A stretch of DNA of 56,699 bases, counting the filler, from Streblomastix strix (Eukaryota): assembly GCA_008636045.1 (NCBI GenBank). It is 3 parts of 3 records of this genome, joined end to end, with 100 filler letters (N's around TTAATTAATTAA, not from the genome) between each part and the next. Parts side by side here need not be neighbours in the genome. Positions count along the whole stretch, not along the records: positions 18,939 to 37,769 come from SNRW01000578.1; 2 more parts are not named here. One strand, written 5' to 3'. The position numbers were made by a program, and so were the translations under genes. The notes beneath the pieces were generated by a model. The model was given only the letters and a program-made list of their open reading frames with translations. It had not been told where the DNA came from and made no database searches. Shown here piece by piece: positions 6,251 to 46,379 of the stretch; the first letter of the stretch is position 1, and the number at the start of each line of letters is the position of its first letter.

Positions 6251-6622
6251 TTGTTTACAGATAAATACTTCAAAAAGTTTCTTTAATTAAATTTTATTAA
6301 ATTTACGTCAATATGAGATATAGCAGACAAAAATTGTCAGACGCTTATGGATTTATTTTGCCCTGTCTTTTGTCTTGTATAGACAATTCATTTTATTTAC
6401 TTATTCCAATAATACGCACATTAATTTAAGTCATATGTCAGTAAGTCACCAAAAATCGTCGGAATCTCTTGGATTAGTCATGTCTTATTATTTGTATTAT
6501 AAAGTATTTCACTTCATTTGTCCATTCCACTAACATATGCATACATTATTAGGGACTAAATTTCTGTTTTCACTTTTATTAGACTGACATATATATACTT
6601 TATTCCAAATATAAATTCATTT

Positions 6623-16200: not shown

Positions 16201-17920
16201 TCATTTGAAAATTTGAGACAATTTGGTGATATTTAATATAAATCTTACAAAAACGCTACATCAGCACGTGGATTATTATAAGATGATTTGTTATTATGAA
16301 ATACAATGTTAGATGCTTGCACATTTAGAATGCCTTCTGTTTTAAGATATCTTCATTTTACTTTAATTAAAGAATGCTCTCCTCAAAATCTTTCATAGTA
16401 ACTTGCAGAATTCGTAAAGTAGTTCTCTGATGATTTCTTATTTTAAAGATAGATAATTAATGGTACATTTGGATAATTACCAACAGAAAATGAAATTTAA
16501 TTAGTAAAAGAGAAAGCTTTTTGTGATCTAGAAAATATATAATAAAATCCTGTAATTAATCTTCGACATCTCTTAAAATAGGCCGAAATTCAAAATTATG
16601 TAACTATTAATTAGTTATAGATAGGTCAAATTTAAGATTCAATGAATCAATAACTCAATAAATTAAATGAAGATTAAGAAGAAATTGTGTTATTGGTAAT
16701 TGGAATATTAAATAATTAATTTTCATAGTATTCTCGACTTATTTTTGTTGATGGTCCTGTAACAACAGGAAAAACGTTTTTTACAATATCATTAACAAAA
16801 TATCCAACTTAAAAGGAAAAAATTCTTAACTGTGCATGGATAGGAATTGCAGCTTACTTATTGCCCTAAGGATAAAGCTCCCACTGTCTTAACATACTTC
16901 CTGTACCGCTTAATTCATCAAAAAATTCTTCAAAAATCACAAAAACGAAAAATAAGCAACTGTGGAATTAATTATAATAAGTGGATGCGATAATATGGGA
17001 TGAAGCGCCTATGGCAAGTAAGTGGGATATTGAATCAGTTGATAAAAAATTAAAAAAATAAGAAAAATTGATAAAAATTTTGAAGATATTCTTATGATTT
17101 TTAAGAAGAGATTTCAGATAAGTTTTATCAATAATAAAATATGGTGGGCGTAATGAGTAAGTGATGGCATCAATTCAGAAATCTCAGTTATGGAGAAAAT
17201 TTTATTGTCAGAAGTTGAAGATAAACATGAGATCAGAGGATGGTTCGGAAGAATTTTCAACTTTTTTAATGTAAATTGGAAATGAAACAATGTAGTCGGA
17301 CAAAAGTAGAATGGTAAACATTCCTGCAATTTGCATGAGCTAAGATAATATGATTAGAGACATTTTTGGAGATGAAATTAAGAAGAACAATTAGTAAGCA
17401 AACGATATTATATTGTGCACAATGAATAGCGATTCGGATGGTGTAAATGATTGTGTACTTAAACAACTTGAGGGTGACTTGATCCAATTACTCAGTTCAG
17501 ATAAAGCAACAATGAAAAACGGGGAATCGTTAGACAAAATTACCAGAGGCGTGCTTAAAAATCTAAGTCCAGCTGCACTTCCTTCTCATAATCTTAACAT
17601 AAAAATTGAGGCGCCTTTTATGCTTCTTAGAAATATGAACATAAAGTTAGGTTTATGCAATGGAACTCGGTTAGAAGTTATTGCTATAAAACCATCAATC
17701 ATTCCATGCAATTTATTAATTGGACCAACTGCATGAACTTCAGTTTCAGTTCCAAAAATGGATATCACTTCAACAGAAACAGATTATCCATTTATTTTTA
17801 CATCGCCATTAATTTCCATTGAAACATTGTTATGCCATGACAACCAATTAATCTCAAGGATTGACATTGAATAAAGTTGGAATAAATCTTAGATAATAAG
17901 TATTTACTAATGGATTCTAA
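13220..17920 (+). pseudogene. Helitron Rep (HUH, Y2) / Pif1 helicase, frameshifted
   Basis: HPDLLITFTAN; RIEFQKRSFAHAHILL (HUH 15261-15269); KSVKYGFKYVFK (Tyr 15654 and 15666); FVDGPVTTGKT; IIWDEAPM; PFMLLRNMNIKLGLCNGTRL; SQGLTLNKVGI. Confidence 0.92.
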
Positions 17921-18347: not shown

Positions 18348-18730
18348 ATTATGTTTGGAGGAAATCACATTGATTTTTATAATAGCGATGTGTTAACTGA
18401 TCTTATTGAAGATGGAGTTTATTATGATCTTACTTTAGCGTAGCAGAAAAAATAAAAGAAAAAGAAGGAAATTAAAGATGAATGGCAACTTGAGATTGAA
18501 AATGCCTTAAGATAAAAGACACGAAAGAAGAAGAAATCATTTAGAACAAGAGTTTTTGTATGATAAATTAATATTTTTATTTATTTACTGTTAATTTTTA
18601 TTAATTATTTTAATTAAATTTAAATCCAATAAATAATAAATATGATTTTATTTTAATTTTTTATTAAACAGGAAAAATTTGATTATGACAAGCAAATCAA
18701 GGAAGCAAAGTATTTATAAGTGCTGAGAGA
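18348..18730 (+). CDS. Probable internal exons of an unknown host gene, cut off by the contig end
   Basis: Open frame ..DVLTDLIEDGVYYDLTL..KSFRTRVF, GTATGA donor at 18558, CAG acceptor at 18671, then EKFDYDKQIKEAK. Confidence 0.4.
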
Positions 18731-18838
18731 TTTATTTTATGAATATTAAATAAATAAAAATATTAATTTATCATACAAAAACTCTTGTTCTAAATGATTT
18801 CTTCTTCTTTCGTGTCTTTTATCTTAAGGCATTTTCAA

Positions 18839-18938
18839 NNNNNNNNNNNNNNNNNNNNNNNNNNNNNNNNNNNNNNNNNNNNTTAATTAATTAANNNNNN
18901 NNNNNNNNNNNNNNNNNNNNNNNNNNNNNNNNNNNNNN
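18839..18938. other. Assembly spacer N44-TTAATTAATTAA-N44
   Basis: Artificial six-frame stop linker inside an N run. Confidence 0.97.
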
Positions 18939-19050
18939 TATTCCACTGTTCAAATAATTAGTTCTATTTAGCCCTTAAACTCCTGCCTCAATTAAATCCG
19001 TTTATTTTTTAACTGAGTCATAGACATACGATTATGCTTCAAATTATCCA

Positions 19051-20250
19051 CCTGAAGCAAGACCAAAATAGGGTGATTAAGTGATTGCATTAGTTGGAAC
19101 CGATGCTCCCAATAAATATAATATATTTTGTTATATCGATTAAAGGGGGCCATTTATTATAAGTTCTCGGTTGTTACCGTCAAATACTGCTCTCGTGCTC
19201 AATATAACATATTATAAAAATTATAAATCTTCAAAGAAAATAAATTATGATGCCAATAATGATGGAAAAATAGACATTAAGGACACGTGGATTGTTAATG
19301 GAAAAGGATAATTTGAAGCATAATCGTATGTCTATGACTCAGTTAAAAAATAAACGGATTTAATTGAGGCAGGAGTTTAAGGGCTAAATAGAACTAATTA
19401 TTTGAACAGTGGAATAAAATTAGTGGATGAATTAGCGATATATAAAGCAGATAGAGCAGCATATTTTATTAAAGACGGTCCATTTATCGTATATAGCTTT
19501 GGAGCAAAATTGGCACAATTAGGCGTAAATTAAGAAGCATAATAAAAATTATATTAATTATTTTCGACATTCAGCAAAAAATTACTACCATCAAATACGA
19601 AATATATGCCTATTCATGTCGAACAATAGGAATTTTCTGCTATGTGTTTGTTCAAGGACATATATGATAAGTCGTCAGCAGTATAGGTGGCCGTTAGTGA
19701 ATAATTAAATATGCTAGATTGTGAATTTCAAGGAACATATATACTTGATAACTATGCGAACAACACAAACGCCAACGAGTCAGAACCTGAAGATGTAGAA
19801 TCTCACATCGACGAAGTAATAATAAAACATGAAAAATAATTAGGTTCATCGCCACAACCACAATATACGATAACAAATGTCTATAATTAGTTTATGATAA
19901 ATGATTTTTTCCCTTCATCAGCATATAATACATTCTATATCGTCGATGACGGCATTTGTAGGGTATGCGTTTTCAATCTATATTTCGAATCTAAAGGTTT
20001 AGATTGGAGAACGTAAGAGGCTGGTCGTATTCCTGATTCTGTAATACCTGCAGATGGTAAAAGCTTGGGCTTCCCTGCGGCTGTATATAGAACAAATGGC
20101 GGAAGATAGAATAATTTTTCAGTGAATTATTTTATTGTAAATGCTTAATTTAAAATGTTATACTTTTAATTATCAGAACCATAAGAGTCAATACCAACGG
20201 ATTTCGATGATGTCTTTAAATATTTTGCTAGTGGAATGTATTATTTGTGA
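19051..20250 (+). CDS. 5'-truncated beta-rich protein, putative virion fibre/receptor-binding protein
   Basis: 400 codons open with TAA/TAG=Gln; PEARPK, LLPSNT and RIPDSVIP segments recall fibre-head repeats; EF-hand-like loop DANNDGKIDIKD at 19249-19284; function inferred. Confidence 0.55.
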
Positions 20251-20400
20251 AAAACATTAATAAAATTTTTGAATAATTGAATGTTTCATATGCTTAGAGC
20301 CGCAGCCTGCTTACGAAATAGGCGGAGGTTTAACGATATGCATCGAGTCATAAAACATCAATAAAATTTATGAAATTGACACGAGAAATATGAACAGTTA

Positions 20401-20490
20401 ATGAATGGCCTTTGACTGCACCGAGTGCATCGAGTGCATCGGGTCAAAAACTTTTATAAAAAGCTGTAGTCAACTGGACAACTGGCCAAT
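20401..20490 (+). repeat. 90-bp module-boundary repeat, copy 1 (forward)
   Basis: ATGAATGGC..TGCACCGAG TGCATCGAG TGCATCGGG TCAAAAACTTTTATAAAAAGCTG..TGGACAAC TGGCCAAT. Confidence 0.97.
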
Positions 20491-20552
20491 AAATGATAAA
20501 AAATAAATATTCCTGACAATTAATGAATTGAATATATTTTTTATATTTTTTT

Positions 20553-20864
20553 TTGATTCTATAATTATATTCTTCGACCTTGTATATCAATTGGTAATTT
20601 TTATCTTAAATATTCGTCATTTCTTAACGTTTCAAAATCTTATCTAAATTAACCATTTTTATCCGCACCATAGCCATAATCAAGAAATGAACTAGCTATA
20701 TCTTACCCTTTGCCTATTGTTTAACCGATTGGACCCAGTGCTCCAAGATTCGGTTTAGCAAATGGTTTTATGAATGGTTTATAAACGTTATCATTAACCA
20801 ATTAAAGACCTTTCCCTGCTTTTTGAACTAATTATTTGATTTTTGAAAATATGCCTACAGCCAT
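20553..20864 (-). CDS. Small protein with an N-terminal amphipathic helix (possible membrane-lytic virion protein)
   Basis: MAVGIFSKIKQLVQKAGKGLQLVNDNVYKPFIKPFAKPNLGALGPIG..; ~104 protein-like codons; no TGA at the expected end, so the 3' limit is uncertain. Confidence 0.6.
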
Positions 20865-20946
20865 GATTTACTTGTAATAAAAATAAAATTTTACGTATAT
20901 TATTTTCTATTTGAATAAATGATTTTTTAATAATGTTTTCTTATTT

Positions 20947-21036
20947 ATTGTCCAATTGTCCAGTTGGCCACAGCATTTTATAAAAGTTTCTGACTCGATG
21001 TACTCGATGCACTCGGTGCAGTTAAAAGTCATTCAT
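20947..21036 (-). repeat. 90-bp module-boundary repeat, copy 2 (reverse)
   Basis: Reverse complement of the copy 1 consensus, no indels. Confidence 0.97.
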
Positions 21037-21160
21037 AACCTATTCCATTTATGCGTGCCAAAATATCGCTTTTTCATCAATGATTTTTCCAATTATCAAC
21101 GTTTTTACATTTCTTTAAGTATTTATTTAATTATTTCAATTTTTTTATTGAATGTAAAAG

Positions 21161-22873
21161 ATGAATATATTTCTAATGAATGCCACACATTTACAACAAG
21201 CAGGAACCATTGAAGAAACATTGTTAGGTAATGCTGTCGTTCCATTCACTAATGACGGAGAACATCATTAATCAATCAAGGAAATCAAACCAGAATCTTA
21301 AATGCTTGCGTTATTTGATAAAGAGATTATTATAAGTTTATCAGATACGGACCACAACATCACATAGATATAAAATTCGTTCTTGTCGATAGTGCTAACG
21401 GCTAATATTTATCTTGATGATAAATTTGATAAAATTGACGAATCATATAAAGACGGATTGGTTCTATTCGTAGGTCTCAAATCACGTTCAAATCTTATTC
21501 GCGAATATATCATCTACTATAGAGGTAAAACCATCGATGGAAGCCTATAGAATGATGCAACGACAGAATCATTCATTTATAACACAATCAAGTCAAAAAG
21601 TGAGAAAAAAAATAGAAAACATATACATTTTTTATATGAGAATATTCATAAATTTGATACGTCAGCATGTGGAACATATATAAGTATACGAGAGATTGAA
21701 GAGCAAATAGGAAATCAAACAGCTGTTCCATACACAATTCCAATTCGTTTCAGAGTCAGTATTCCACTTGATGACCTCTTGATATTCTCAGACTTCATTG
21801 ACTATCCTAATGGCTTATTTGGAGATTTAAAAATAAAATTCAAAATTAATCCTCATGCATTCGTTTTCTGTTAAATGAATCCAATTATTTCAATGGCTAA
21901 ATATTATACAATGAATAAAGATGAATTATTGGGTAGTAGTCAGTAGAAGCTAATGGATATCGATTTTATGTTCAGAAATTGGAGTTTGACATTCCAATAT
22001 ACCAAATAATTTATATAATTGGGATGCACTGCTGACTTGATAACAGGACTACATGCGGAGCCATTAACTGAGTAAGGATTGAAAAACTCAGTATGCGACA
22101 TCAAACCTGTTACCATAAGCATAAAAAATTATGTCATAACAGAGGTAACTGCTAACATGGCAGGTTATAAAGCTACTGATGCATGTCTTAACCGAGTCCG
22201 TTAATTCTACAGCCAACGTTCATTTGTGGTTCCCGCTCAACGTGTGGAAGTATGGCCATTTCCAACGTCTGCTACTTTAACGGGAATACAAACATCTTAA
22301 AACATTCCACTGTCTCACATAACCGATTTCTGACAGCTATTTCCGAAAGATGCAAGAGCAACGATTTGCTTTGAAAATCCTTGCTATCAGAACATGCAAA
22401 TAACCACCTGCGGAAGTAATTTCCCAGATATGCCTATGAATGCGCTTGACCAATAATTCTTCTAATTATAACTCAATGCGTCAAATCTTGACCTGTTATT
22501 CGAAGCAACTGATGAATTCGAAGATGCTTTGACTACACCAAGAAATACAGTAACTCGAAGATTGAACCCTCATACTGATTTAACGAGCTTTTTGATAACT
22601 CTTTAATGTGAAAGGAACAACAACGGAGCATTAACTTTTTACGGACTAGACACTCAGAACAAAAATACATCTGTCGAACTCAGAGGAGCACCAATATATC
22701 AAGGAGCAACAGATTCATATTATAATGTAGATACCAGCGGAAAGAGACCGCCACCTCCTATTTTATGCACAGATCATGATACATTTTGGTTGTTTTCACC
22801 TGCTGCGGGCGGAAGCTGCATATACGATACAAACCATTCATTTGATGAGGTAATTGGACCGCTTACAGGATGA
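21161..22873 (+). pseudogene. Probable double jelly-roll major capsid protein, one premature TGA
   Basis: 570 codons in one frame, TGA at 22331; beta-rich (RFRVSIPLDDL..YPNGLFGDLKIKFKIN; SFLITLQCER..GLDT..SVELRG); size and context fit an MCP, fold not verified. Confidence 0.7.
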
Positions 22874-23014
22874 ACGAACTAATCCGTTTATGTTTATACA
22901 TTTTTTATTTTTTTATTTATATATATAACTAATATCTAAAGATTAATAATTTGGTTAATTAAATAGGTCATTAATTATAAGCACATTAATTACTATTTAC
23001 TTATTTACTTATAA

Positions 23015-23410
23015 ATGGCTTCAAATATGACTTCAGCATAAAACTTAAAATATTAAACTTTGAAATAAGATGAAGGAGTTGTAATCGGAGAAAATGGTTA
23101 AAATGGAGTTAGTTTTGCATTATCATATGCGTTTGTAAATTCTGATAATTAAAGAAAAATAATATTTTGCTAATGTCATTGTTCAAACTAAGGCGCGGAT
23201 GAGGATATTACAGTTCATAGTTCGATGGTTCAAGAAGAATAATATTTCGATTAGTTTGTAGGCTATTGTAATGAATAACGGGTTTATAAGCCTTTCATCC
23301 AATACTCGCACAACAGATATTTATATGTTTGGTTCCGATAAAATTAAGAATTATTGGATATAAATTAAAATTAACTAAAATTTGTTCTGGAGTTGATGCT
23401 GGAATACTGA
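23015..23410 (+). CDS. 131-aa protein, possible minor capsid (single jelly-roll)
   Basis: Intact ORF right after the MCP; C-terminus YLYVWFRQNQELLDINQNQLKFVLELMLEY resembles penton C-terminal strands. Confidence 0.5.
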
Positions 23411-23568
23411 AATAAATTATTTATTTTTCAAAGGACGATTTTTCGTTCCTAGACTTTGAGCCTATATTTGTGTTCAAATCATCCGGCCAATTCGTCCGCT
23501 CATTTTCGAGCGCACGAAAATTAATCGTTTTATTTATATATAAATTCAACTTTTTATCTCTATATAAA

Positions 23569-24441
23569 ATGGAAGCACAAATAGCAACAACTCATTAAAT
23601 TACATCAAACAATGAAACTTTCACTTTTGGCTCTTATATGATGTTCGAATTAATAATTCATGATAAAGATGGATATATTAATGCAACAAAATTAGTTCAA
23701 TAAATCAATGAACGAGAACTTATGAATAAACAATTAAAGAAAATTACATCAACCGCAATGTATAGGGATTACAAGCAATTTTTGTAGTAATAATCGGCTG
23801 GGCCCAAAATGGTCCAGCCCCTTCTTGAGTATCAATTAGTTAATGAATATACAAACAATGTAAGAGGAACATATATCCATAAAGATTTAATAAACATTAT
23901 ATGTATGAAAACATCGATAAAATATTTATATCTTATTAATTAGATAATGGAAGTAATTAATGAATGCATATAAGTCGCTTACTAAGAAGCATATTAATAA
24001 GATGATTAGAGATCCATGGCTGATATTACAAACGAATAAGTTTAATTAGTTATAGAAGAATAAAAAATAATAATAAATTAAAAAGATTATGAAATAAACC
24101 AACTGAAACCAAGAGCTGTTCCATAAGGTAAAGAAACAACTTATGTTCTAGCCGTTCAATATATAGAAATTGATGATAAAAATAATACAATTTTAAAGGT
24201 TCGAAGAAGAAATAAGAAATAGATTATTCGAAAATTGATGCTGAAATTAAAAGATGCATTGTTATACTATGATTAGGAATGTATTGCTATGACCAAAAAT
24301 GAAGCCATCAAAGAATATTTAAATAAAAATATGGAAGGTATTATATTTAGAGGAACCAAATATATATTCAATGAAGATTTAACTGATGAAGTCATAAATA
24401 AAATTAAAGAATATATGAATTTATAACTTGAACACAAATGA
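23569..24441 (+). CDS. KilA-N domain DNA-binding protein with coiled-coil tail
   Basis: IIHDKDGYINATKL ... VRGTYIHKDL; intact 290 aa. Confidence 0.85.
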
Positions 24442-24475
24442 AAAACATTATTTATTTTATTTTTGCAGAAATTAA

Positions 24476-24835
24476 ATGGAAAGAATATTATTTGATAACA
24501 GAAAAAGCAATTAATTTATTTCAAAATTATAAATAGAAACGGATGAATAGGAAGAAATTCCATTCGAGGAGCGGGTCGAAGGTTAGACTAACGGACATAA
24601 ATATTTTGAGAACTTAAACGATTTAAAATAATTTATTTCCTAAAATTAATAATAATTATTTAAACTAACAACGTAAAAACTAAATAAATTATATAAATTT
24701 GAAGGCTATAAATTATCAAAAATAGAGGGTCAAGTATGTATAAGGACTTCTGCCAAAGATTAATTGAATTTGATTGAGTATAAATTAGACTAGTTTTTGG
24801 ATGTTCAGAACCATTTGGTTTAAGTGCTGAAATGA
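24476..24835 (+). CDS. 119-aa viral hypothetical protein
   Basis: Intact ORF MERILFDNRK..KLNKLYKFEGYKLSK..VQVLK*; stop codon lies at the start of repeat copy 3. Confidence 0.65.
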
Positions 24836-24921
24836 ATGACTTTTGATTGCACGGAGTGCATCGAATGAATCGGGTCAGAAACTTTTATAAAAAGCCATGG
24901 CCAATTGGCCAACTGCCCAAT
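24832..24921 (+). repeat. 90-bp module-boundary repeat, copy 3 (forward)
   Basis: ATGAATGACTTTTGATTGCACGGAG..GTCAGAAACTTTTATAAAAAG..TGCCCAAT. Confidence 0.95.
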
Positions 24922-24945
24922 TTAATTAAAAAAATATTAACGTTT

Positions 24946-25734
24946 TCAAATTATTTTAACTACTGTTCCACTCATTTCATATTATACCACTAATGCTTAT
25001 TATTTAGTTAGTCGTACGTACTCATAGCATATTGTTTCTTTATCTGATGGTATAGAGGATTAATAGAAAAATTAATTAAATTTTAATCTGTTAAATGAAC
25101 CGAAGAACCATAATGTATCAAGATTTGACTTAATCGCAGCATCTAAACCAATAATGTCCTATAAACAAAGGAAGTATGTTATTCTGGGCTACCTGTTCCT
25201 AAATAACTTTTTAAATAGTGTATTATTTTTATTTTTAAATATACTCAGTGCATCGTCAAATAAAACAATCGTATGCGGAAATTTGACGTCAAAATTACCT
25301 TCCGCACTAGCTCCAAACACTTTATTTAATATTTCATTTTTTGATTCTTCAGTTAATTCTTTTTATAATTATTTTTCTTAAATTTCATCATACGCTTATT
25401 TGCAATCTATCATATCATTCAGCACTTAATCCGCTTCAGCATTTGGAATAATTTTTGTAGGGATTTTAATTAAATCCTTCATCTTTTTATAAGTGGTATC
25501 ATTATTTGAGTCGCTGACGTATATGAATAGTGTATAACAGTATTTTTTTAATTAGCTTAATTTTATTAGCTCTTTGAAGACGTTGTATGTCTTACCACTT
25601 CAACGCTAACCTATCAATAAATTTACAGAGTTATATGTAAAATTTAACTCTTTATGAATAATGGTTTAAATTTCGTGCTTATTCACTTTTATTTCTTTTA
25701 AAATATTATCAACTTTTTATGTTAAACTCGTCAT
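24946..25734 (-). pseudogene. A32-like FtsK/HerA genome-packaging ATPase
   Basis: Walker A LLIGQR*SGKT (TGA at 25600-25602), Walker B IVLFDDA, RNRQPRITYFLCLQD; also frameshifted. Confidence 0.85.
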
Positions 25735-25774
25735 TTTTACTATATAAAACTTTTTTTTATCGATAAGAAATAGA

Positions 25775-26866
25775 ATGTCAGAAATACTCGATTTAAAAGC
25801 ACTTGAAAAAGAACCAAGATAAGAATTTGAGGCAGAAAAAAGCTAAGGTGCTGGTGGTGCAGGCGGTTTGATGGAAGTTGATGGAATGGAGGATGATTAC
25901 GATTATTATGAATCACAAGCTGCAAAATAAGACAGAATGGAATCACGAGCAAAACCGTTTGGTAGGCTGTCGATCCATCCCAGTATGATTCAAAGAACAA
26001 GAATGCATGCAGGCCCATAATTTAAAGAAGAGGCAGGCGATGTCCTTGCTACACTTGTTGGTTATTTGAACAGAGATATAAAGAAAATTAATAGGTTATC
26101 GTCTGCCGTCAGTGCTCAAAAATATATTGACGATAAACATTTAGGCAAACGATTTAGTGTATTGGAATAGGATTTAGATGATAATGAAGCCACTTCTGAT
26201 AATGTGGTTGTTTTTGATAAGAAAAAGAACGCAATTTATTCAGTCGATGGTTATACAACAGCTGTAGGATTTGGCGACCCAGTACATTAACATAAAAGAA
26301 ATTGGAAGAGAAAATATTTTTCAGATGTTAATGATTTAGAAGGAGCTGCGTTGGCTGCAAAATTAAAGCAATAAAGAATAAAAGGCGGCCCTTACATGAA
26401 ATTGCTATCAATGACTAAGCCGCATAAAGTAAGAGAAATAAAGGATTATAGTTTCAGAGCATTCACCGTTGAAGCCAAAAAATTCATAAACGCTAATGGA
26501 GGCGCATAATTGCCAATGGCTACCAAACAACAAATAATGGCATCTGCTTGGAATTCAGTATTTATTACTCCAGCTGTAGAAATATTAGAAAGATAAGACG
26601 GAAAAATAGACATATATAACAGAAGCAATAAAACTAAATTATAGTAAAGATAATACGAATATTTACCACTTGCTAAAAGATTGTATAAAAAAGAATTGCC
26701 TACCGCTATTGCTCAAATATATACTTCTGATTAACAGATTAATAATAAGATTGGATAAGCTCTTACTCAAGCCATGTAATATTATGGTCAAATTCTAACG
26801 TAGAGATAGCAATAAATAGGTGGTTATGACTTAACTAAATACAAGTTCGTTTAAAATAATCAGTGA
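25775..26866 (+). CDS. 363-aa viral hypothetical protein
   Basis: Intact ORF with TAA/TAG=Gln, MSEILDLKAL..IYSVDGYTT..FVQNNQ*; starts 40 bp from the divergent ATPase. Confidence 0.75.
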
Positions 26867-26903
26867 TTTAGGAAGTTTTATTTTTATTAATTTTTTATCA
26901 ATT

Positions 26904-26993
26904 ATTGGCCAGTTGTCCAGTTGGCCACAGCTTTTTATAAAAGTTTCTGACCCGATACACTCGATGCACTCGGTGCAGCTAAAAGTCATTCAT
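26904..26993 (-). repeat. 90-bp module-boundary repeat, copy 4 (reverse)
   Basis: ATTGGCCAGTTGTCCAGTTGGCCACAGCTTTTTATAAAAGTTTCTGACCCGAT..AAAAGTCATTCAT. Confidence 0.97.
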
Positions 26994-27107
26994 AAACGAT
27001 TCCATTTACGCGTGCCAAAATAATGCTTTTCGTTGAAGTTTTACGACTCAATCCAACCAACAATCCAGTTTATATATGTTAATATTATTTATTTTTATAT
27101 TAAATAA

Positions 27108-30100
27108 ATGACAGATAAATAGGGGTAAGACTCATAAAGACGACACACGCCTCTAATTATGCCTCCGTCAATGACACAAGAATTACCAGAGCTATTACCA
27201 TTAAATTTACCACTTTATCAATCACTCAGATAAACATAACAATAAATGACTTAAATGTAAGACTATATAGGATGGGCGCAAACACGAGATTATTAGCCAG
27301 TGCCATAATTATAAACAGAATAATAATAGGTTTTAATGTAAGATTATATTACGTAAATGTAAGCAGATAATTATTAATTATCGCTAGAATTATAAATGGA
27401 ATAACGTCAAAAATAATTGATATAAATGCAGAATTATATTGCGTAAATGCAAGCACGAAATTATTAATTATCACCTGAATTATCACATGAACTGCAACCC
27501 GAACAAGGCTAAGCTCACGATGTGCGGAGAGAAGATTATCAAATGGATTTAAGGCCTAAAAAATTAACTCAAAATGCTATAAGAAAATTAATGTTTTTAT
27601 ATGACCCTGAAACATAACAGAAAATAAATGTTAATGAATTGAGGTCATAATTTTCATAGTTTTTAGATAAAATCAGTTTAAATCACGGTAGAAACAATAG
27701 AAATATAGTTAGAAATGCAATATTATAATCTGAACCATTTGCAAGACGAATCAGATAAGATATTCAATAAGGCCTTCAAAACGAATAAATTATCGGTGAT
27801 GCTTATGCTAAATAATTTATACAAGAAATGAATAACAAATAGCAAATGAACGCTTAAGACGAATAGAGCCAACAGCATAATTAATAATGGGAGCAAGTGA
27901 TGGAAGATTAGCGAGCCAGACATGCAAAATTATTAAAAGAAATTAAAGAATAAAAAATAAACCTTAAATCAAAATAGAATGAAGATGTATTTAAAAATGT
28001 AAAAGATGAAATAAAATAATTTAATGAAGAAAATGAGGGTAAGATTTTTAGGCCAATTGATGCTCTTAACGTCCTATAGAGCACGATTATGTTATGTGAG
28101 CCACAACTCGAATAAGAATATGAAAGAAGAATTTAATTTGAGCGAAAACATTTATAAAATTAACACGTAAAATATGACCCATTTTATGTTCATACTATCA
28201 GCCCCACAAAAGAATATTACATAAATGACTTGAAAACGATTGAAGATGTCGATGCCTATTTAGATGAAATATATTAGCGAGAATAGAAATTTGCATTCAA
28301 AATTGCATTTGATTTTGGAGTGATTATTGAACGAGTTGATGGCAAAGAAAACGATTAATAAATAACGTATAAAATTATTCATCCCCTTGAAGCTAGAACA
28401 GAGATGAGAGCTCCAACTACTATACGCACGCACTTAGATTTGGAGGATTATAAAAGATACATTAGAAACCACATAATTCAAATGCAAGAGAAAATCATCA
28501 TGGACACGAAAGAGAAAATAATAGGTATATTTTCAATAATGATTTAGGTGTTTCGTCTTCCGCATGCAGGCGCTGGAGGTGGTCGAACAATAGCATCATT
28601 AAAGAAGCACATTATGAGGCGAGAGATTCGATATGTTGACCCTGAGAAAAATAATTAAAATTTATGTTTCTTTCTAGCATATTCATTTATTACGATGCTA
28701 GATATTAAAGCAGATGTTGCTGCTGACGGTTCCGCTATTGCTGCTAAGCGTTATAAGGAACACTCGCGAATTGCAGAAGCAAAACGATTATTTTAAAGAA
28801 TCTCTGGCAAGAAAATCGATGATAATTATTAAGGTTTTAATTATTCAACAGAAGCAAATTAATTTATTTGGAACGAAAATTTAAATATAAATGTGTTCGC
28901 TTATGAAACAGCAACGGAAACAACAACGGAAACCAATCAAGGCAGTTATTATCTATGGAAGCAATACAGAAGAATCGAACAGTACGAATAAACTAAAGAA
29001 TATAATATACTTATAATAACCGATACAATTAACGAAATAGAAACAGCTCACGTTTTTTATATAATTGATGTTGAGGCATTGACGGGTTTAAAATATTGTC
29101 CTATCTGTGGTGTGCAGGCTTATAAGACCAGAGATTCAAATTTATAATCTAAACTAAAGAGGTACATATAAAAATGTTAAAAAAATGGAGGAAAGATAAT
29201 AAAAAAAGTATATTTAGAAAAATTTCCAAGGCCATACGTTCCACATATATTGAATAATATTAGCTATAAGTATCTTTTGGCGCATGATCGAAAGGATGAA
29301 TTTAAACCTACAAAATATTATATAACATATGATATTGAAACCGTAGAAAGAATCATCAATGAACAATTTGGTGATAATTCAAAATAAATTTCAATATTTG
29401 AACCTCTTTCGATTGCAAGCACAATAAAAATAAAAAATAAAAAAATCGACGTTGATGAAGTTGGTTCTATTGATTAAATTTATTCTATTTATTTTGATAT
29501 ACGAACCCCTAACTTCATCAACGTATGGATAAAATAGTTATTTAAGGAAGCCCGAAAAGTTATAGATTCAAACAAATATGAAGATGAGACGATACCATAG
29601 CATTATGAGGTTCCAGTAATTGCGTTCAATTCTTCAAAGTTCGATGTCGCACTAATTCTTAAAAATTTATAAAGCGATGAATGGCAAATCATTAAATATC
29701 TTGGTAGTGGGTCAAACGCTAAATAAATCATTGTTAAGCATAAAATATCAGGTATAAAATTGAGGTTCATCGATGCGATGATTTATTCTACAAAAATGAA
29801 ATTTAAATAATTCATTAAAGACTTCACACCTAAAGCGTCAGCAACATCGGAAAAATCAGAAATTCCAACCAAATTAAAATTTCCATATGAATTCATCAAC
29901 TGCGAAAATTGCAATGAAATATTAAATAGTCCCTAATCATTTCCCTAAAAAGCATTTAATAACACAATTAAAAATAAAAATATAAGTCAAGAAAAATATT
30001 TAAATTATTTAGCTATCGCTTAAAATTATTCGAATGGTTGGGATTACCTCCGACACTATAACCTCTAAGATACCCGCCTAATGATTGAGCACTTTGATTA

Positions 30101-32354
30101 CTTAATTGATATCTTCTTTAATTATAAAATTGACATGTTGCAATTTATGTTGATGTCTGCATGTGCCAATGCTATCAAATATGCTCTTGCTTATTGGGAC
30201 TTCAAACTGGATTAAGATTATACGCCAAAAGATGATTTTGCATCATTTATTTTGACATAAAATTATTGGAACATTAAAGTTTAAAATTATCTTGAATAAG
30301 ATAAGAAAAGAAATAGAGATACAAGCAACAACATCAAAGAATCAAATTGTGCGTTCTGCAGAAAATTATTTCTATCAATAGGATACCACATATGCAAGGC
30401 ACGATTCACAAGCAAGAATCCACGAACATTGGATAGAATCAACAACGACAGGGGCCATTCTACAGATAACGTTAAACCGTGCTGCTTCTTCTGTAATAAA
30501 TTTAAATCAAATAAAGATGAAAATTTAACAAGATTAATAATTCATTAAAGACTTCACACCTAAAGCGTCAGCAACATCGGAAAAATCAGAAATTCCAACC
30601 AAATTAAAATTTCCATATGAATTCATCAACTGCGAAAATTGCAATGAAATATTANNNNNNNNNNTTTCTTTTCTTATCTTATTCAAGATAATTTTAAACT
30701 TTAATGTTCCAATAATTTTATGTCAAATAAAGATGAAAATTTAACAAGATTAATAATTCAATTAAAAAATTTCTGTCTGATGAAGTCGCTACCTATGACT
30801 ATAACTGATGAGGAAATTTATTAAATTTTACGTTCTGGAATCACTGGCGGATTATCATAAGTCATGCATCGCTATAATGTTGCAGGTGAAACTAAAATAA
30901 ATTAATTAAAATTTATTAATAGAAAGGTCATTAGTTAGGACACAGACCACACAATGACCCATCTTTTTACGCTTGATTTCAACTGTTAATATCCCAGCGT
31001 TATGAGTTCAGAGCCGCATAAGTTCATTAAATATTCAGGTAATAAATTATATATGGCGGGGCAAATATTGGATAAAATTACTGATAATTAAACTGCAAGA
31101 AATTTAATTTATAATCCAAATCGATTTAATGACGTTGAAGGAATGCCGCTATTTATCGCAGTTGTTAAAGGACACATCTACGAATAACATATAAATGATT
31201 ATATTAATTTTCTTCCGATATTGAGAAATATTGATATTACGACTGATTAAAAAACATTAGGTTCATACATGTATAATCTATTACTGAAAAATAACATGTA
31301 GCACGATAAAATAGAACGAAAATTAACAAATTTATCATCGGCGCATGGGTAATTCATGTCGTTCAATAATTATTATTTATGGCTTCACAATGATGATTTT
31401 CATTTCATTATTGACGATATTTAATGTATTATAACATTCTCGAAGCACGATAGATTCAATCCATTTGTTAAAAAATTTATGAATCAAAGAATATAAACAA
31501 TCAATGAAAATAATGATAGAAAAAAATAATTCTATAAAATATGCTATGAACTCAAGCTATGGAACTGATGGGATGAATTAAGAAAAATATTCGCAAACGA
31601 AATTGTTGAACACTGATAAGACTTGGTTTTCTCATCTCTAAGGTTCATTCGTTAATGATTAACAATTAACAGATGATTTATATGCTGTATAATTTAATGC
31701 TGAGAGCTGCAACTGCAACACCTGCCTCCATTCTGCTTATTTCGTGTTAGATAGTAGCAAATATTGGCATATAAATTTTATCTATAATTTTATGTATAAA
31801 ACTTTCGATATGAACAAGATGCACTACATTTGTGGTGATACTGATTCGATGACATGGGCAATCAGCGGCAACCCTGATGCAGAAGAAGGATACAGACAGA
31901 AATTTTAATATGTAATCAAGGATTAAAAATTTTTCGATGAAAATTATCTTTTGTTCTTCTGTTAGTATAAATAATTATTAGGAGTAAGTTATGAGGCAGA
32001 AAGAACGGCTTGCATTGCTTTAGCTCCAAAAATACATTACATTTATAATCCTTTACCTAATGAGAATGAAAAGGATTACAATTATTGTTTGAAAGGAATA
32101 ATATAAAAATAAAATGTTCATTTAAATGATGAAGCATTCAAAAATCATTGAATGGAGAATAAATTTATGCTTAAAATATTATTCTTGGTTAAAGAAATAA
32201 ATAAATGTCAAAAATATAAATAAATAAAGTTGGTTTATCATCGATTCATAATAAAATGGTTGTGCTTAAAAATTAGTGTTGAGCTTAATTCCTTTACATT
32301 AACTGATAATAATTGAGTTCAGATAATTATATAATTGCCAATGATGAGCACTGA
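27108..32354 (+). pseudogene. Protein-primed family B DNA polymerase with long N-terminal region and HNH-like insert
   Basis: ExoI YDIET (29328), ExoII FNSSKFD, KFPYE, ExoIII HYNLQD, SGITGG, motif A DFNCQYPS (30975), motif B KI..MNSSYG with a 1-nt frameshift near 31545, motif C GDTDS (31834); local misassembly at 30541-30760. Confidence 0.93.
27253..27490 (+). repeat. Three degenerate ~27-codon Gln-rich repeats in the PolB N-terminus
   Basis: QMQDYIGWAQTRDYQ / LMQDYITQMQADNYQ / QMQNYIAQMQARNYQ. Confidence 0.75.
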
Positions 32355-32405
32355 TGATAGGCACTAATAATTAGCATGAATAGGAGCGATAAATTGAAGT
32401 AGTTT

Positions 32406-32495
32406 GTGAATGGCTTATGACTGCACCGAGTGCATCGAGTGCATCGGGTCAAAAACTTTTATAAAAAGATGTGGCCAATTGGCCAACTGGCCAAT
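32406..32495 (+). repeat. 90-bp module-boundary repeat, copy 5 (forward)
   Basis: GTGAATGGCTTATGACTGCACCGAGTGCATCGAGTGCATCGGGTC..TGGCCAACTGGCCAAT. Confidence 0.97.
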
Positions 32496-32534
32496 AATTG
32501 ATTTCATTAATGCCTTTAATTGTTTTATTTTTGC

Positions 32535-34425
32535 ATGAAATAAAACGTAAAACGAAAATAATTTGTATGAGGAGATACTATAGACCTTCGATCGTGAAAA
32601 ATATCAAAGAGAAGAATATGAATTTGAGGTATAATAAGACATCGATGATAAAGCATAAAAAGTTCATTATAAAATGAGTCTATCAGAGTTCATTAAAAAT
32701 ATCTTTAAAGTTGTAAAGAAGAAACATATTGATGTTATGGTAGAAAAAGCAGATGAAATAATTATTGGAAAACGAACATTGACAGATTGGTATTATTATT
32801 ATATTTCAGTTTAATCGTAATTTGAACCTGCAAAATAAAAAAATAAACAGAAAAATAAATAAATGGAAAAAGAAGTATAATAAGAGGTTTAGACATCCAA
32901 CCAGTAATCTGATTAAGGTGGTGATATGGAAAATATGTCCTATTATCCTTTCAAAACAAAAATTTAAATTGTTTAAAAAAATCAACAAATAAAAATATGT
33001 AATTAATTAAAAAGATTAAGTGCCAGTGAAAGATTATAAATTAAATCCATTATAAAGACTATAACGACTTTATTTCTCTCCAAAGTTGGACAGTTGGGAG
33101 ATAGATATAGTCTTTTCTGTCGATTAAGACTTGCAGGAAAATAATGAGGAATATGATGATGCTATCTTTGAACAAGACGAAATATTAAATGAGAGAGAAA
33201 AATGAAGAAAAACAAATTTGTATCTATTTTACATAAACATTAATACAAAATATTTAGTAGTATATCCATTGATTGATAAATCAGCAGCATAAGTAGTTGG
33301 ATAATTGCAAAAATTAATAAAAAATTATTACGTAAAAAATACAGTCATTATCGGTTAATTCAAAAACCATTTTGCCAAAAAATGGAACTGCGAATTAGGG
33401 ATAATTCGCAGTTTATATACATAAAAAATACTAAAATTTTTATTTTAATTAAAAAATTTCATTTATAAAGTAATAATATAAATAAAAAATAATAAATTTA
33501 TTTTAAATCTAAGTTTTTTATAAAAAATTATTTAAAGTTTTTGGTATATTTTTAATTAGTTAAATTTTATAAAAAGAAATAAAATATTTTATTTTTAAAT
33601 TTAATGTAAATTTGTCATAAATTATTATTTTATTTTTAAAAAAATAGAATTTATAAGGATTTTATAAAAATTTACTGCGAATTACATATTTAGTTACTGC
33701 GAATTAAATGAAAAAATTTATGCAAAAATTTTAAAAATATAGATCATTTAGATTGAATACTGCGAATTAGATCTACTGTGAATTAACAGATATTTGAATT
33801 AACCGGTATTGACTGTATTCGTGGTGATGGAGAGAAAGGATTTAATGGTTCATATTTTGCTTTATTTTGTTCGAAAAATAAAATTAGTGGTTATTTCACT
33901 GATTCAAAATTCATTAATCATAATCGAGTAGTTGATTCGGTTATTCGAACAATAAAGAATGCGTTTGGTTATAAATTTAATTATTTTTCAAAGAATAAAT
34001 AAATGTAAATAGTCGTTGATGTATACAATGATACTCCTCATCTAGCGTTTCAAAATAAATATAGCCCATATTAAGTTCAATTATCACGAGATTTAGAAGG
34101 ATAATATATACGTTCATAAATGAAGAAATTAGAGCGACAATTAGTAAGACAACGATAGCAGGGCATATTATCATTTAAGGCTGGAAATATAATTTAAATT
34201 CATCTTGATTTCTAAAAATCTTAATAAAAATTTATAAAATAAAGAAAAAATTTTAATTAATTAGCGGAGTTTATTAGATATGTAAATGGTAATGTTTTAT
34301 GCAGATTATTGAATCATTCTTAAAAAATAAATAAAATCAAAATATCTTCATATTATTGCAAATATGTTAGAGAAAATTAAGAATCGATACCCGAATATTA
34401 TGCAACAGAGTTTTTATTTAGATGA
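32535..34425 (+). pseudogene. RVE (retroviral-type) integrase, interrupted by a MITE
   Basis: WEIDIVF (33095), YLFYININTKYLVVYPL, N|IRGDGE restored when the MITE is removed, HNRVVDSVIRTIK, YNDTPH; premature TGA at 33203; start uncertain. Confidence 0.85.
33342..33815. mobile_element. 474-bp Tc1/mariner-pogo type MITE
   Basis: TA duplication (33340-41, 33816-17); 23-bp TIRs CAGTCATTATCGGTTAATTCAAA / TTTGAATTAACCGGTATTGACTG (21/23 match); internal CTGCGAATTA repeats. Confidence 0.93.
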
Positions 34426-34475
34426 AACAATAAAAATTTATTTATATAATTTTCAATTTTTTTATTTAAATTAAA

Positions 34476-34808
34476 ATGGCAGATAATCAAGCAATCAATG
34501 AATCAACATAAACGGAATCAACAGCTTCAGCGAAATAAGGAAGACCAAAGAAATATACTGATAAAGAATAGGCAATGATTGCTGCTAGAGAGCAACGCAA
34601 AAATGCAAGAATTAGATACAAATAAAACTAAACAAATTATGCTTCAAAAGTTAATGATATGCAATTATTGATAATCAAAAAACTTAAAAAAATAATTGTA
34701 AATATAAATGATTTGATAACAATAAATGAGTTGATTAAAAAATATGACAATAAAAAAGATACTACTGAAGATGCTAACGAAGACAACAACGAACAAATCA
34801 ACGTTTGA
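34476..34808 (+). CDS. 110-aa basic protein with an AT-hook-like motif
   Basis: Intact ORF; KQGRPKKY followed by a basic helix. Confidence 0.65.
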
Positions 34809-34840
34809 AACATTAAATAAATTTATTTTTTTTCTCAATT

Positions 34841-34930
34841 ATTGGCCAGTTGTCCAGTTGGCCACAGCTTTTTATAAAAGTTTCTGACCCGATGCACTCG
34901 ATGCACTCGGTGCACCCAAAAGTCATTCAT
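34841..34930 (-). repeat. 90-bp module-boundary repeat, copy 6 (reverse)
   Basis: Near identical to copy 4; similarity to the region upstream of copy 1 continues to about 34995. Confidence 0.97.
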
Positions 34931-35413
34931 AACCAATTCCATTTATGCGTGCCAATTTCATATATTTTATTGATATTTTAGGACTCGGTGCAGTCAGTGC
35001 ATAAAAACAAATACATTTTATGTTCAATTTAATAATAGATTTCATCTAAGATTTCTTCAATGAATCCATAAAAATTCAAAATTCAATGTTCAATTTACTA
35101 GGTCGGTAAGACCTCCGCCTACGGCTGAATTCATCAATAATTTTAGGTTTCCGTTAATAAAAACAATCAACTAAATCGATCAATCTTCCTATGTAGTTAT
35201 GAGAATATGGAGAGTGCCATACGTTCAAAAATCATCAACATTAAACAATTCATTAATTTATCGCAATATCCATATTCATTAATCAAATTCAATATTTTTC
35301 AAACAATAATTTTATTTCAAGTATCTTTTTTCATTTGCATTATTTATATTACCATATTTATTTTAAATTATTTATTATCATTATTTATTTTCATTATTTT
35401 ATTTTATTTTTCA

Positions 35414-36505
35414 ATGTGGGGCACTAGCCATATTCTCATAACTACTGAAGATAAAAGAGAAATAATTATTTATACATCAATTTAGAATGTGCAATAAACT
35501 GTGACATATGAAAACAGAATATCATCCTTCAACGAAACTGGTTTATACCCAAGAGATTAGAATGTGGTTCTCAACAACGAAGATGTATTGCAAGATTAAG
35601 AAAATCCGAGATATTAGAACGGAAGATCAAGTCTTAAGTCACCTTAATGTTCAAGAATTATCACTAATCTTAGCGATTCAGATCCATATTAGCTTTCAGA
35701 TCCTGATTATCTACCTGAAAAAGACCCATACATTTACTGTAGCGACTGTGAGGAGTCCGACGATGGCTAAGAATACGATTCTGACTACAATGATTCAAAT
35801 TATAAGAGTGTGAAATCAAATAAAGACAAATCAAAGATAGAAATAAGCGAACTTTCGGAATAAGAATTAAGCACAACAGATTCTGATGAGACCAATCATG
35901 TAGAACAAACAGATCAATCAGATTCAGAATCTAATTTCTTTGAAGAATCAAGCAACAGCAGAAGCAAAAAACCTACTAAAGAAATAAAAGAAAAGAAAAA
36001 AACTCCTTCGGATTTCCAGTAAATTATCTAGATCGCTGAAGAAAACAATTAGTCAATAATAGACAACTAAGCAGGAGGCGACTGCTACTTCAGAGTACTT
36101 TCTGTAGGACTTTATAATACAGAGAATGAGCATATAAATATAAGACAACTTGCATGTGACTATTTGTAAAACCACGCTAGTGATGATGATATTCGAGTGT
36201 AATTTGTGACATAAGCAGAAGCTAAAATTGCAAGGTAATAGAGAGAAATTGGAAATTTCAATCCAATTCCATGGCAATAGAGAGAAAGAGAAGAAACAAT
36301 TGAATAATAAATCATGCGTATGGGTAACGTGCATCAGTGGGCTGATGGTCCAGTTCTTGAAGCTGCCGCAAGAGTAATTGGTAGAAAAGTAACAATTTTT
36401 TTTACCAGATTGGCAATCATACACTCTTAACAATCCAATTCTACTCGCTCCGAGGCTCAATATTACTCTTGCATTCATCAATACATTTTTTTATTATTTC
36501 AAACA
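35414..36505 (+). pseudogene. Transposase-like C-terminal segment + acidic linker + OTU cysteine protease domain
   Basis: One frame: TVTYENRISSFNETGLYPRD; GGDCYFRVLS (Cys 36083), HINIRQLACDYL, WADGPVLEAAARV..RKVTIF; catalytic His not evident. Confidence 0.7.
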
Positions 36506-37769
36506 ATTTACGAGTTACAATTACAGATTCAGTATTTCTTGTTTTTAGTACTTATTTTTGACTTTTATTTTATTTTTCTTATTTTAATATTTTAATACTT
36601 ATATTCTAATCTCAATTACATGATTTATAACTATTAATTTTTATATAATGGCTTAAATCACTGGGATGAAATTTATTTTAATAAACCTGCATATTTCACT
36701 TAAACTAGCTCTGATAATCGTTTTATTTTTATTGCAATCCAAATATATTCTATGGTAGTAATTTATTTTATTGCGCACTTATATAATTTTTACATAATCG
36801 GCACATTCAGATTTTTTAATTAATTTTTTTATGGTTTTATTTTTCTCTTTTCTCAACCAAATAATTTTTCTGACTTGAACTGATATGTTTATCAATATAT
36901 GGAACATTTAAACTTTATTTTTATATTAGTGAAATTTTTGTCTTTGATTTATTTAACTATGTCGTGACTATTTTTATACATTTTTTAGTTTAAAAGTTCC
37001 AATAAAACCACACTGAATAAATATAATGCATATAATTTGAATTTTATTTTATTAGTATATATGAAGTATATATGAATCTATTTATTTTTTTCTTAAATAC
37101 ACTCGGTTCATTCGTAAAATCGAAATTAATAAAAATAATTTAAATTTTTCTAAATACTATATTTTGAAATAACCCTAAATCACTCTCTTTTCATACCAGT
37201 ATTAACTTTAAGCTTTTAATTCAATGGTCTTTTTATTTATTGCTATGCATAAATACAATACAATTATATCTTATATATACATTTGCATGTTAAGGCCTGG
37301 AACATCATTTTTTTTTATATAGAACCATGAATAAACAGCACTTCAGCCACAGGATCTAATCTGACACTACAACCTTAACAAGCTTATATTTTAATTTAAT
37401 AAAATTATTCATTTATAGCTACAAACTTAATGCGAAAATTTTTTACACTAAAACACGAATTACTCACAAAATTTTAATTAATTTTTATTTTTTTTATTTT
37501 TTTCTTTTTATTAAGTATGTATACTGACTAAATATGCTCTGGTGACGATATTATTATAAGTTTGATTAGATTAGGAATAACTTTATATTTTTTATCTTTT
37601 CTTCTTTTTCACAAATTATAGATATCGTTGATGAAGGTAATATTCGTTCTAAATTTGAACCGTATCAAAATGAATATCTTGATCTCAAGATTTTGAAGAT
37701 CTAAAGCTACATTGATCGTCCATAGAACTTAAAATTTTGTGTTGTCTATGAAAATGATATTTCGAGATT

Positions 37770-37869
37770 NNNNNNNNNNNNNNNNNNNNNNNNNNNNNNN
37801 NNNNNNNNNNNNNTTAATTAATTAANNNNNNNNNNNNNNNNNNNNNNNNNNNNNNNNNNNNNNNNNNNN
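37770..37869. other. Assembly spacer N44-TTAATTAATTAA-N44
   Basis: Same artificial linker as at 18839. Confidence 0.97.
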
Positions 37870-45560: not shown

Positions 45561-46379
45561 CATTCAAGGATTCACAAACGACTGTAAATCAATTAAATAC
45601 ACAAATAATTTATTTTAATCAAATTATGTAAATTTATAAAAACAACATAGAAAAATATTAAAAAAATAAATATAATTTATAATAATTTATAATTAAATTT
45701 AATAATAATAAAAATAAATAATTTTTTTAAAAAAAATTTAGTTTAAGAAATTAAATTTTTTAAATTATTTTATATATTTTTTTAATTAAAATATTGTTTG
45801 CTATTAAAAAATTAATAAATCCAAAAGAAATAAAAAAAATTCAATATTTTTTTCATGTTTTATCGATTTAAGTTAATATCTAATAGTTGATGGTACAATT
45901 TTATTTAATTAATTGAACTATTTTCTGGAATAAAATTTAAATTATAAATATGTTAAAATAAAATTTATTTTTGTTAATTATTAATAATTCTATTTTAAGA
46001 AATTTTATTGAAAATAATCCTGAGTTTTGAGAAAAAATACCGAGAAATTATTATTTTAATAGGATCTTTGAATATTCGACTGAAAATTTAGAAACTCTTG
46101 AAAGATTAAATATTGCAATTATACTTAATAATTAAAAATTTACAAATTATTTTCAATGATAATTATATAAAATATGCAAAAAATGAATTTTAATCTTTAA
46201 CATATCAAATAATAATAATTTTATTATTCAAAAACTCTCCTTAAATAATTTTGGTTAATAATAGAATTCAGAATTAATATTATTAATAATTAATTTTATA
46301 AATTTTTTTGTAGAATATAATTGAAAAATCTATTTAAAAATAATTACTTTTAAAATTTTTCTCACAAACAAAAAAATGT

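Follow-up and report, generated by a model that had tools for sequence, protein, structure and literature searches.

A 90-bp repeat in alternating orientation at the gene-unit boundaries of a Polinton-type element of Streblomastix strix, a putative two-faced transcription boundary

The stretch of DNA analyzed here (the window, 56,699 nucleotides of Streblomastix strix, GenBank assembly GCA_008636045.1) consists of three contigs joined by 100-base spacers at 18839-18938 and 37770-37869. Streblomastix strix is a termite-gut protist, and the middle contig (SNRW01000578.1, positions 18939-37769) carries a decayed, high-copy Polinton-type element in which a 90-bp repeat stands between the gene units, one copy per boundary. 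On a comparison of sequences, we somewhat favor the view that this repeat is a family-wide non-coding cassette, a putative two-faced transcription boundary whose copies would be kept alike by recombination and would permit an occasional passive inversion. Among the three models that the initial annotation had put forward for the repeats, i.e. invertible or exchangeable cassettes, a multipartite genome, or a reiterated control signal, the last fits best.

RESULTS

Build and Placement of the Repeat

Six copies of the repeat had been annotated in the order F-R-F-R-F-R (F1, R1, F2, R2, F3, and R3; Table 1), all of them at gene boundaries, and we recovered the six at the same coordinates and in the same orientations, and their location at gene boundaries was borne out by the open reading frame (ORF) map of the window. 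The copies aligned without gaps and were 83-97% identical in pairwise comparisons, with 66 invariant columns out of 90, and a profile built from the six retrieved each of them with an expectation value (E) below 3e-28. Within the 56.7 kb of the window, this profile revealed no further full copy and detected only partial half-copies, near 20339 and at 34982-35002. For six copies of random orientation, strict alternation is expected by chance with P=2/64=0.03. Each repeat is built of three 9-bp units (TGCAYCGAG-like), an AT-rich palindromic center, TTTTATAAAA, which is its best conserved part (94%), and three 8-bp units (TGGMCAAY-like). Homology continued for 25-60 bp past the 'ATGAATG' end in F1, R1, R2, and R3, was weak in F3, and was absent in F2. 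Exact repeat patterns retrieved nothing from the viral, metagenome, and prokaryote collections (0 matches). With a shorter pattern, 46 matches to viral sequences were obtained, all at or below 20.5 bits as compared with about 94-103 bits for true copies, and no Rfam match was obtained. The start of the repeat (24832-24840 in F2) reads TGA, the sole stop codon of the genetic code used, in two frames, and orf138 ends on one of these triplets.

When the small gene was taken in the orientation that it has in the family, all seven gene units (fibre; small; capsid-to-orf138; ATPase; orf363; protein-primed B-type polymerase (pPolB); integrase plus AT-hook) ended at a repeat, at 0-151 bp where measured, and four of the six known starts (small, capsid, pPolB, and integrase) were located about 50-125 bp after one. 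A gene start after R3 was not supported when the fibre N terminus was examined. Because repeats of both orientations were present at end-to-start boundaries, their function is likely two-faced, and the cassette would combine a stop for the upstream unit with a start for the next one. The two triplets may constitute protein-binding arrays, as their place is taken by variant motifs elsewhere in the family, and the protein bound might be encoded by the element itself.

Repeat Placement and Gene Order in Other Copies

Other copies of the element were read through database gene models that splice neighboring genes into one protein and through Logan contigs. We collected 504 distinct proteins, comprising capsid and orf363 homologs, cluster members, and 150 ATPase representatives, many of the latter from other organisms, and 43 of the 504 mapped to more than one window segment. 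The repeat was present in other copies at four orthologous boundaries (F1, R1, F2, and R2), in the same direction as in the window. At F1 it was observed at joints from 20254 to 21061 or 21073, on opposite strands, in runs X2, X3, and X5 from three studies, and also in model P0485. The linker repeats of the gene models, F-reading between the fibre and small genes in P0485 and R-reading before the capsid gene in P0009, P0037, and P0478, each scored above all 300 shuffles, and no repeat was found in four other linkers tested. In model P0214, the reading passes from the ATPase across F2 and continues into orf138 in antisense, which is the arrangement of the window.

Gene order is fixed across the family copies. 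Twelve models joined orf363 to pPolB in the window order, and seven joined capsid, KilA-N, or orf138 sequences forward, also in the window order, some of them via antisense ATPase sequence. No new neighbor or shuffled order at a repeat appeared among the 43 multi-segment models, no model joined the ATPase to pPolB, a junction that an inverted block would allow, and the two models linking orf363 to antisense pPolB broke inside pPolB-side sequence. Capsid and orf363 locus tags, matched by eye, stood 1-2 apart on 10 other contigs, and the capsid and orf363 distances were correlated over 8 contigs (r=0.56, permutation p=0.04). A shuffled order, first suggested by these closely spaced tags, was rejected because P0332, located on such a contig, reads KilA, antisense ATPase, and orf363 in the window order. 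Two further candidates were discarded, a match to 'LNRVRQFY' inside capsid proteins as due to chance and two joins of orf363 to 'AT' as mislabeled repeat or AT-rich sequence. Protein-based locus searches of the collections yielded one short locus (L001), in which a degenerate half repeat (1745-1870) lies between the capsid gene and unrelated DNA, an arrangement that fits truncation; in model P0443, a host-like domain is joined to the capsid gene.

Inversion of the Small Gene in the Window

The small gene was co-oriented with the capsid gene in 18 models of other copies, five of which had the fibre gene in front, and was inverted in the window (1 versus 18). Since small-gene identity across the 18 models spans 27-91% and the small and capsid identities co-vary over these 18 copies, the co-orientation is the old arrangement and that of the window a derived one. 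In the window, the small gene is complete, as is its 83-bp leader, and the two junctions lie beside a single inverted pair, F1/R1, whose longest shared identical run is 21 bases. The fibre end was joined to the small-gene start in one low-depth contig of run X3. Weak signals in AT-rich flanks, namely a joint 20925->34821 with a 28-base side (runs X1 and X2) and a loose end at 20544 (X2), tentatively place the ends of the flip about 20 bp inside the cores and not at the center. We judge the flip likely to be real, and an amplification or assembly artifact could also produce a single flip of this kind. If real, the inversion would be a rare homology-driven event, such as strand exchange or a template switch on a displaced strand, rather than a programmed switch.

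The ATPase/orf363 block was never seen inverted and was in the window orientation in 12 cases, a count biased by the detection of co-oriented neighbors. The initial annotation had considered that both minus-strand genes fit invertible cassettes; this stands for the small gene and fails for the ATPase, given that orf363 is joined to pPolB in the window arrangement in 12 models and that no ATPase-pPolB join occurs.

Near-perfect fold-back and direct duplications were found at 18939-19416, 29806-30766, and 18496-18838, at contig ends and a 10-N gap, and are likely amplification or assembly artifacts.

Movement of Repeat Variants and Flanks

A variant of the 9-mer half was detected in other copies at R1 (P0037) and R2 (P0330 and P0333) and at a loose end in X2, X3, and X5, whereas the six copies of the window are all of the other type. 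In addition, an F3-type flank occupies the R1 position in P0478, and an R3-type flank is present at F1 in the window. The movement of variants and flanks between positions suggests conversion. The variants thus seem to follow the element rather than the position, which would point to conversion among sites, to co-evolution with a binding protein, or to both. Gene conversion may thereby spread variants between sites. The alternation might persist because an exchange between adjacent inverted copies would only flip the unit, so that both of its ends retain a cassette, whereas an essential unit would be deleted by an exchange between direct neighbors.

DISCUSSION

Weighing of the Possible Explanations

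Several observations weigh against a boundary cassette as outlined above. F2, which separates two gene ends, and R3, at the end of the element, lack an adjacent gene start. RNA folding of the repeats was modest (12 strands, z from +0.74 to -2.74), which gives no indication of a hairpin terminator and favors DNA-binding arrays. The fused models reveal co-oriented neighbors only, or chance antisense scraps, and inverted cassettes are under-counted as a result; four of the 43 models (P0081, P0493, P0378, and P0381) switch strand away from any repeat and form a background of rearranged or chimeric sequence. The flip was seen once, none of the Logan contigs listed bridges the flipped arrangement of the window, the contig itself contains fold-back and direct duplications, and two models that pass from fibre to capsid skip the small gene, which makes them ambiguous. 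No long pPolB homologs were found among 2672 candidates, so that F3 and R3 are viewed in the window copy only, and a single variant type per element has likewise been seen in the window copy only.

The repeats might instead be the sites of a shufflon-like system, an element-encoded nuclease or recombinase flipping modules and swapping them among co-resident copies, which we regard as unlikely. The strict alternation, the binding-site-like arms around a palindromic AT core, the intact ends of a small gene that occurs in either orientation, and the presence of flank types at different positions would all suit such a system, and an endonuclease VII-like domain (E=2.2e-5) resides in pPolB. The initial annotation saw no tyrosine or serine recombinase, and we agree, since no recombinase family was matched in the ORFs scanned; a recombinase could lie in the left part of the element, which is off the contig, and orf363 has no clear fold match. 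However, segments were not each found in both orientations (small gene 1 versus 18; ATPase/orf363 0 versus 12), all 12 models that join forward to pPolB keep the ATPase/orf363 block in the window orientation, and the breaks of the two orf363-antisense pPolB models fall inside pPolB-side sequence. Moreover, the co-orientation of small and capsid genes is old and stable over copies 27-91% alike, the tentative flip ends avoid the center of the cores, and endonuclease inserts in Polinton polymerases are described as homing-endonuclease invasions (bioRxiv 10.1101/2024.03.18.585575). What is retained of the invertible or exchangeable cassettes proposed initially is the inverted small gene; the shuffled order expected at repeats was not seen in the 43 models. 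It is similarly doubtful, judging from the sequences, that a protein encoded by the element, e.g. the endonuclease VII-like domain or the integrase, would bind and cut at the repeats, with the variants defining module-exchange groups.

By analogy with baculovirus homologous regions (hrs), the repeats could also be internal origins, enhancers, or packaging signals for which transcription boundaries are merely tolerated sites, a possibility to which we give little weight. An iteron-AT-rich-iteron layout resembles DNA-virus origins, and one copy is located in what appears to be the terminal region. The hrs, viewed as origins, are hot spots for deletion and inversion (PMC6983493), but the element encodes a protein-primed polymerase, an enzyme that initiates at genome ends (bioRxiv 10.1101/2024.03.18.585575), and three boundaries of the capsid cluster (35-160 bp) and that between the integrase and AT-hook genes lack a repeat, although two of them are long enough, whereas every unit end has one. 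Less probable still is a purely regulatory role of the repeats, with no productive recombination at any time and with the inversion of the small gene being an amplification or assembly chimera. Fold-back duplications (18939-19049/19306-19416 and 30251-30313/30665-30727), the strand switches elsewhere in four of 43 models, and the thin coverage by other copies at 20267-20340 and 20501-20539 would be consistent with a chimera, and inversions are reported to account for more than 85% of amplification chimeras, with priming at 2-21 nt of complementarity (PMC1855051). Yet such chimeras carry deletions, and here the small gene is complete together with its leader, with both junctions beside one inverted pair; the longest identical stretch common to F1 and R1 is 21 bases, a short bridge for an assembler to cross, and the movement of variants and flanks between positions would still need recombination. 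Finally, a multipartite genome integrated as an array, as once proposed, or an array of insertions of a miniature inverted-repeat transposable element (MITE) is very improbable and largely refuted. The R...F pairs do provide the capsid and polymerase blocks with inward-reading identical ends, and L001 and P0443 show the capsid gene directly beside unrelated DNA. Nevertheless, each junction has one repeat and not two, and capsid and orf363 are linked on the 10 contigs with adjacent tags; evidence against a MITE comes from the orthologous positions in other copies, from the absence of a target-site duplication at the five pairs inspected, from the lack of any full copy in the remaining two contigs (37.7 kb), and from repeat bins whose depth is, roughly, no more than about 1-12 times that of gene bins.

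Genes and Other Features of the Window

Table 1. Features of the repeat-bearing element
Feature	Coordinates	Strand	Remarks
Long ORF 3' part, 'fibre' (putative label)	18940..20250	+	family-level depth; upstream of small gene in 5 models
F1 5' extension	20339..20400	+	resembles R3 flank; thin coverage by other copies
Repeat F1	20401..20490	+	profile; F-oriented repeat after fibre end in other copies (X2, X3, X5, P0485)
Small amphipathic-looking gene, ~105 aa	20535..20864, 3' end approximate	-	inverted relative to other copies
Repeat R1	20947..21036	-	profile; R-reading repeat between small and capsid genes in P0009, P0037, P0478
Major capsid gene, likely double jelly-roll	21161..22873	+	in-frame stop 22331-22333; homologs and weak fold support
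131-aa ORF, 'minor capsid' (putative label)	23015..23410	+	no database match
KilA-N domain gene	23569..24441	+	PF04383 E=2.7e-12
orf138	24419..24835	+	stop codon within first bases of F2
Repeat F2	24832..24921	+	most divergent copy, between two gene ends; same arrangement in P0214
Packaging ATPase	24946..25728	-	frame broken near 25600; STIV B204 packaging NTPase E=9.6e-5
orf363, conserved	25775..26866	+	106 matches including the window's own
Repeat R2	26904..26993	-	profile; R-reading repeat after orf363 in P0330, P0332, P0333, P0376
Protein-primed B-type polymerase (pPolB)	27108..32285, 3' end approximate	+	frame breaks; assembly gap with duplications near 30500-30730
Repeat F3	32406..32495	+	profile; known from window copy
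Integrase remnants, retroviral-type (putative)	32539..34425	+	two acidic motifs by eye, broken pieces
Basic 110-aa ORF, AT-hook-like GRP motif	34476..34808	+	putative label
Repeat R3	34841..34930	-	profile; known from window copy
Non-coding family sequence to apparent right end	34931..35200, end approximate	.	possibly terminal repeat; X1 depth drop

The element uses genetic code 6, its long frames being open only with TAA/TAG read as Gln, and Polinton-like capsid genes of a Metamonada group, with the same genetic code, are reported from S. strix in PMC10120064. The decay of the window copy is apparent from the capsid stop and from the broken frames of the ATPase, polymerase, and integrase genes. 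Logan contigs of four runs gave deep coverage from 18939 to about 35266 and a drop beyond, depth not being equal to copy number, and in run X1 the summed depth fell about 60-fold past the bin ending at 35266. Because of this depth profile, we place the right end of the element shortly after R3 and count the fibre-like gene as part of the family; the left end and the 5' part of 'fibre' lie beyond the contig.

Three genes (KilA-N, packaging ATPase, and DNA polymerase) had database support, and the last two are Polinton hallmarks, the ATPase identified by its profile match and the protein-primed family B polymerase by a PHROG DNA polymerase match on one piece (E=0.0024) together with motifs A, B, and C and a vOTU-like Cys/His pair recognized by eye. 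Polintons of parabasalids and of oxymonads besides S. strix have the same ATPase family. The domain order used for comparison was that of bioRxiv 10.1101/2024.03.18.585575. The polymerase gene contains the endonuclease VII/HNH-like insert at 30240-30530 and, at its Gln-rich start (27238-27483), three 75-nt direct repeats whose number varies among copies. The capsid gene had 262 homologs, the best 120 of which are all named Streblomastix strix; its structural model had a predicted local distance difference test (pLDDT) score of 38, and all 28 fold matches listed were jelly-roll capsid or scaffold proteins, the best with a weak E=0.011. The initial gene labels were thus upheld by databases for KilA-N, ATPase, and polymerase, by weak fold matches for the capsid, and by motifs seen by eye for the integrase, whereas 'fibre' and 'minor capsid', with no informative family match in the database scans, stay putative. 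No Foldseek match at E<=0.001 was found for orf363 (model pLDDT 50), and its best VIA Z of 7.0, to small helical bundles, was not accepted as a match. The integrase had no Pfam or PDB match, and the basic 110-aa ORF is presumably an AT-hook protein. None of six window ORFs was present as an exact sequence in the protein collection.

An AT-rich insert (16% GC) with 27-bp terminal inverted repeats interrupts the integrase at 33324-33816; it looks MITE-like and is absent from other copies, and similar sequence is found near 45650-45790. Just past the apparent right end, an OTU-like protease gene (35500-36500), with low family depth, may be a host gene or cargo. Elsewhere in the window we noted Helitron remnants at 14335-17094 (Helitron_like_N and PIF1 helicase pieces), a direct duplication of about 3.1 kb at 3937-8988, 66-82% alike and with a DUF5906 piece at 6756-7514, which is possibly another decayed mobile element, and a weak DDE_1 transposase-like piece at 46992-47723 (E=0.0085).

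Comparison with Known Systems and Significance

The R64/IncI shufflon is reshuffled constantly by a dedicated tyrosine recombinase acting at short sites. The element described here shares with it several opposed-orientation repeats that bound adjacent segments, but differs in its variable 90-115-bp sites, in its fixed gene order, and in that no recombinase was found. A closer precedent for a boundary cassette is provided by the PeSL promoter/terminator cassettes of the T4-type phages RB49 and phi1, as reported in PMC2839356. These are also reiterated intergenic cassettes at gene boundaries that stop the upstream unit and start the next one, and their copies recombine and reshape the genome; they number about 50 per 160-kb phage, lie mostly among accessory genes, have proven activity, and yield deletions and mini-circles. 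In contrast, the six copies of this eukaryotic element bound core modules and alternate strictly, and their activity is putative.

In Polisuviricotina, according to bioRxiv 10.64898/2026.10.13.758929, internal, non-terminal repeats bracket replication modules of Polinton-type genomes. They resemble the repeat studied here in surrounding functional modules; in those multi-replicase genomes, a single additional replicase lies between the repeats, and the bracketed units are interpreted as mobile and acquired, whereas here one repeat family occupies every unit boundary, family-wide, with the order fixed. Baculovirus hrs are likewise dispersed, homologous, non-coding repeats with palindromic parts and associated deletions and inversions (PMC6983493), but they form tandem arrays in a large circular genome, whereas single copies of alternating sense are found here in a small element with protein-primed replication. 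For endogenous Polinton-like viruses of a Metamonada group, terminal inverted repeats are mentioned in PMC10120064. A hairpin signal is reported for Sputnik (PMC6723459), in contrast to the modest folding of the repeats, and modular genomes and terminal palindromes, not an alternating layout, are treated in PMC12220804 and bioRxiv 10.64898/2026.07.28.741278. A six-fold alternating cassette in a Polinton was not found described in the literature searched, supplements and most subscription papers being outside its scope.

Polinton-type viruses are known as mosaics of capsid and replication modules, and the repeats would offer a concrete substrate for the exchange of such modules. If the sites were addressed by an enzyme, this would be a natural eukaryotic multiple-inversion system, with modules flipping and swapping among hundreds of co-resident copies. 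As a two-faced boundary cassette, the repeat is a candidate transcription signal for oxymonad viruses, for which none surfaced in the literature searched, and it would represent a repeat built into every unit boundary, evolving in concert, in a layout that makes recombination between neighbors flip a unit and not delete it.

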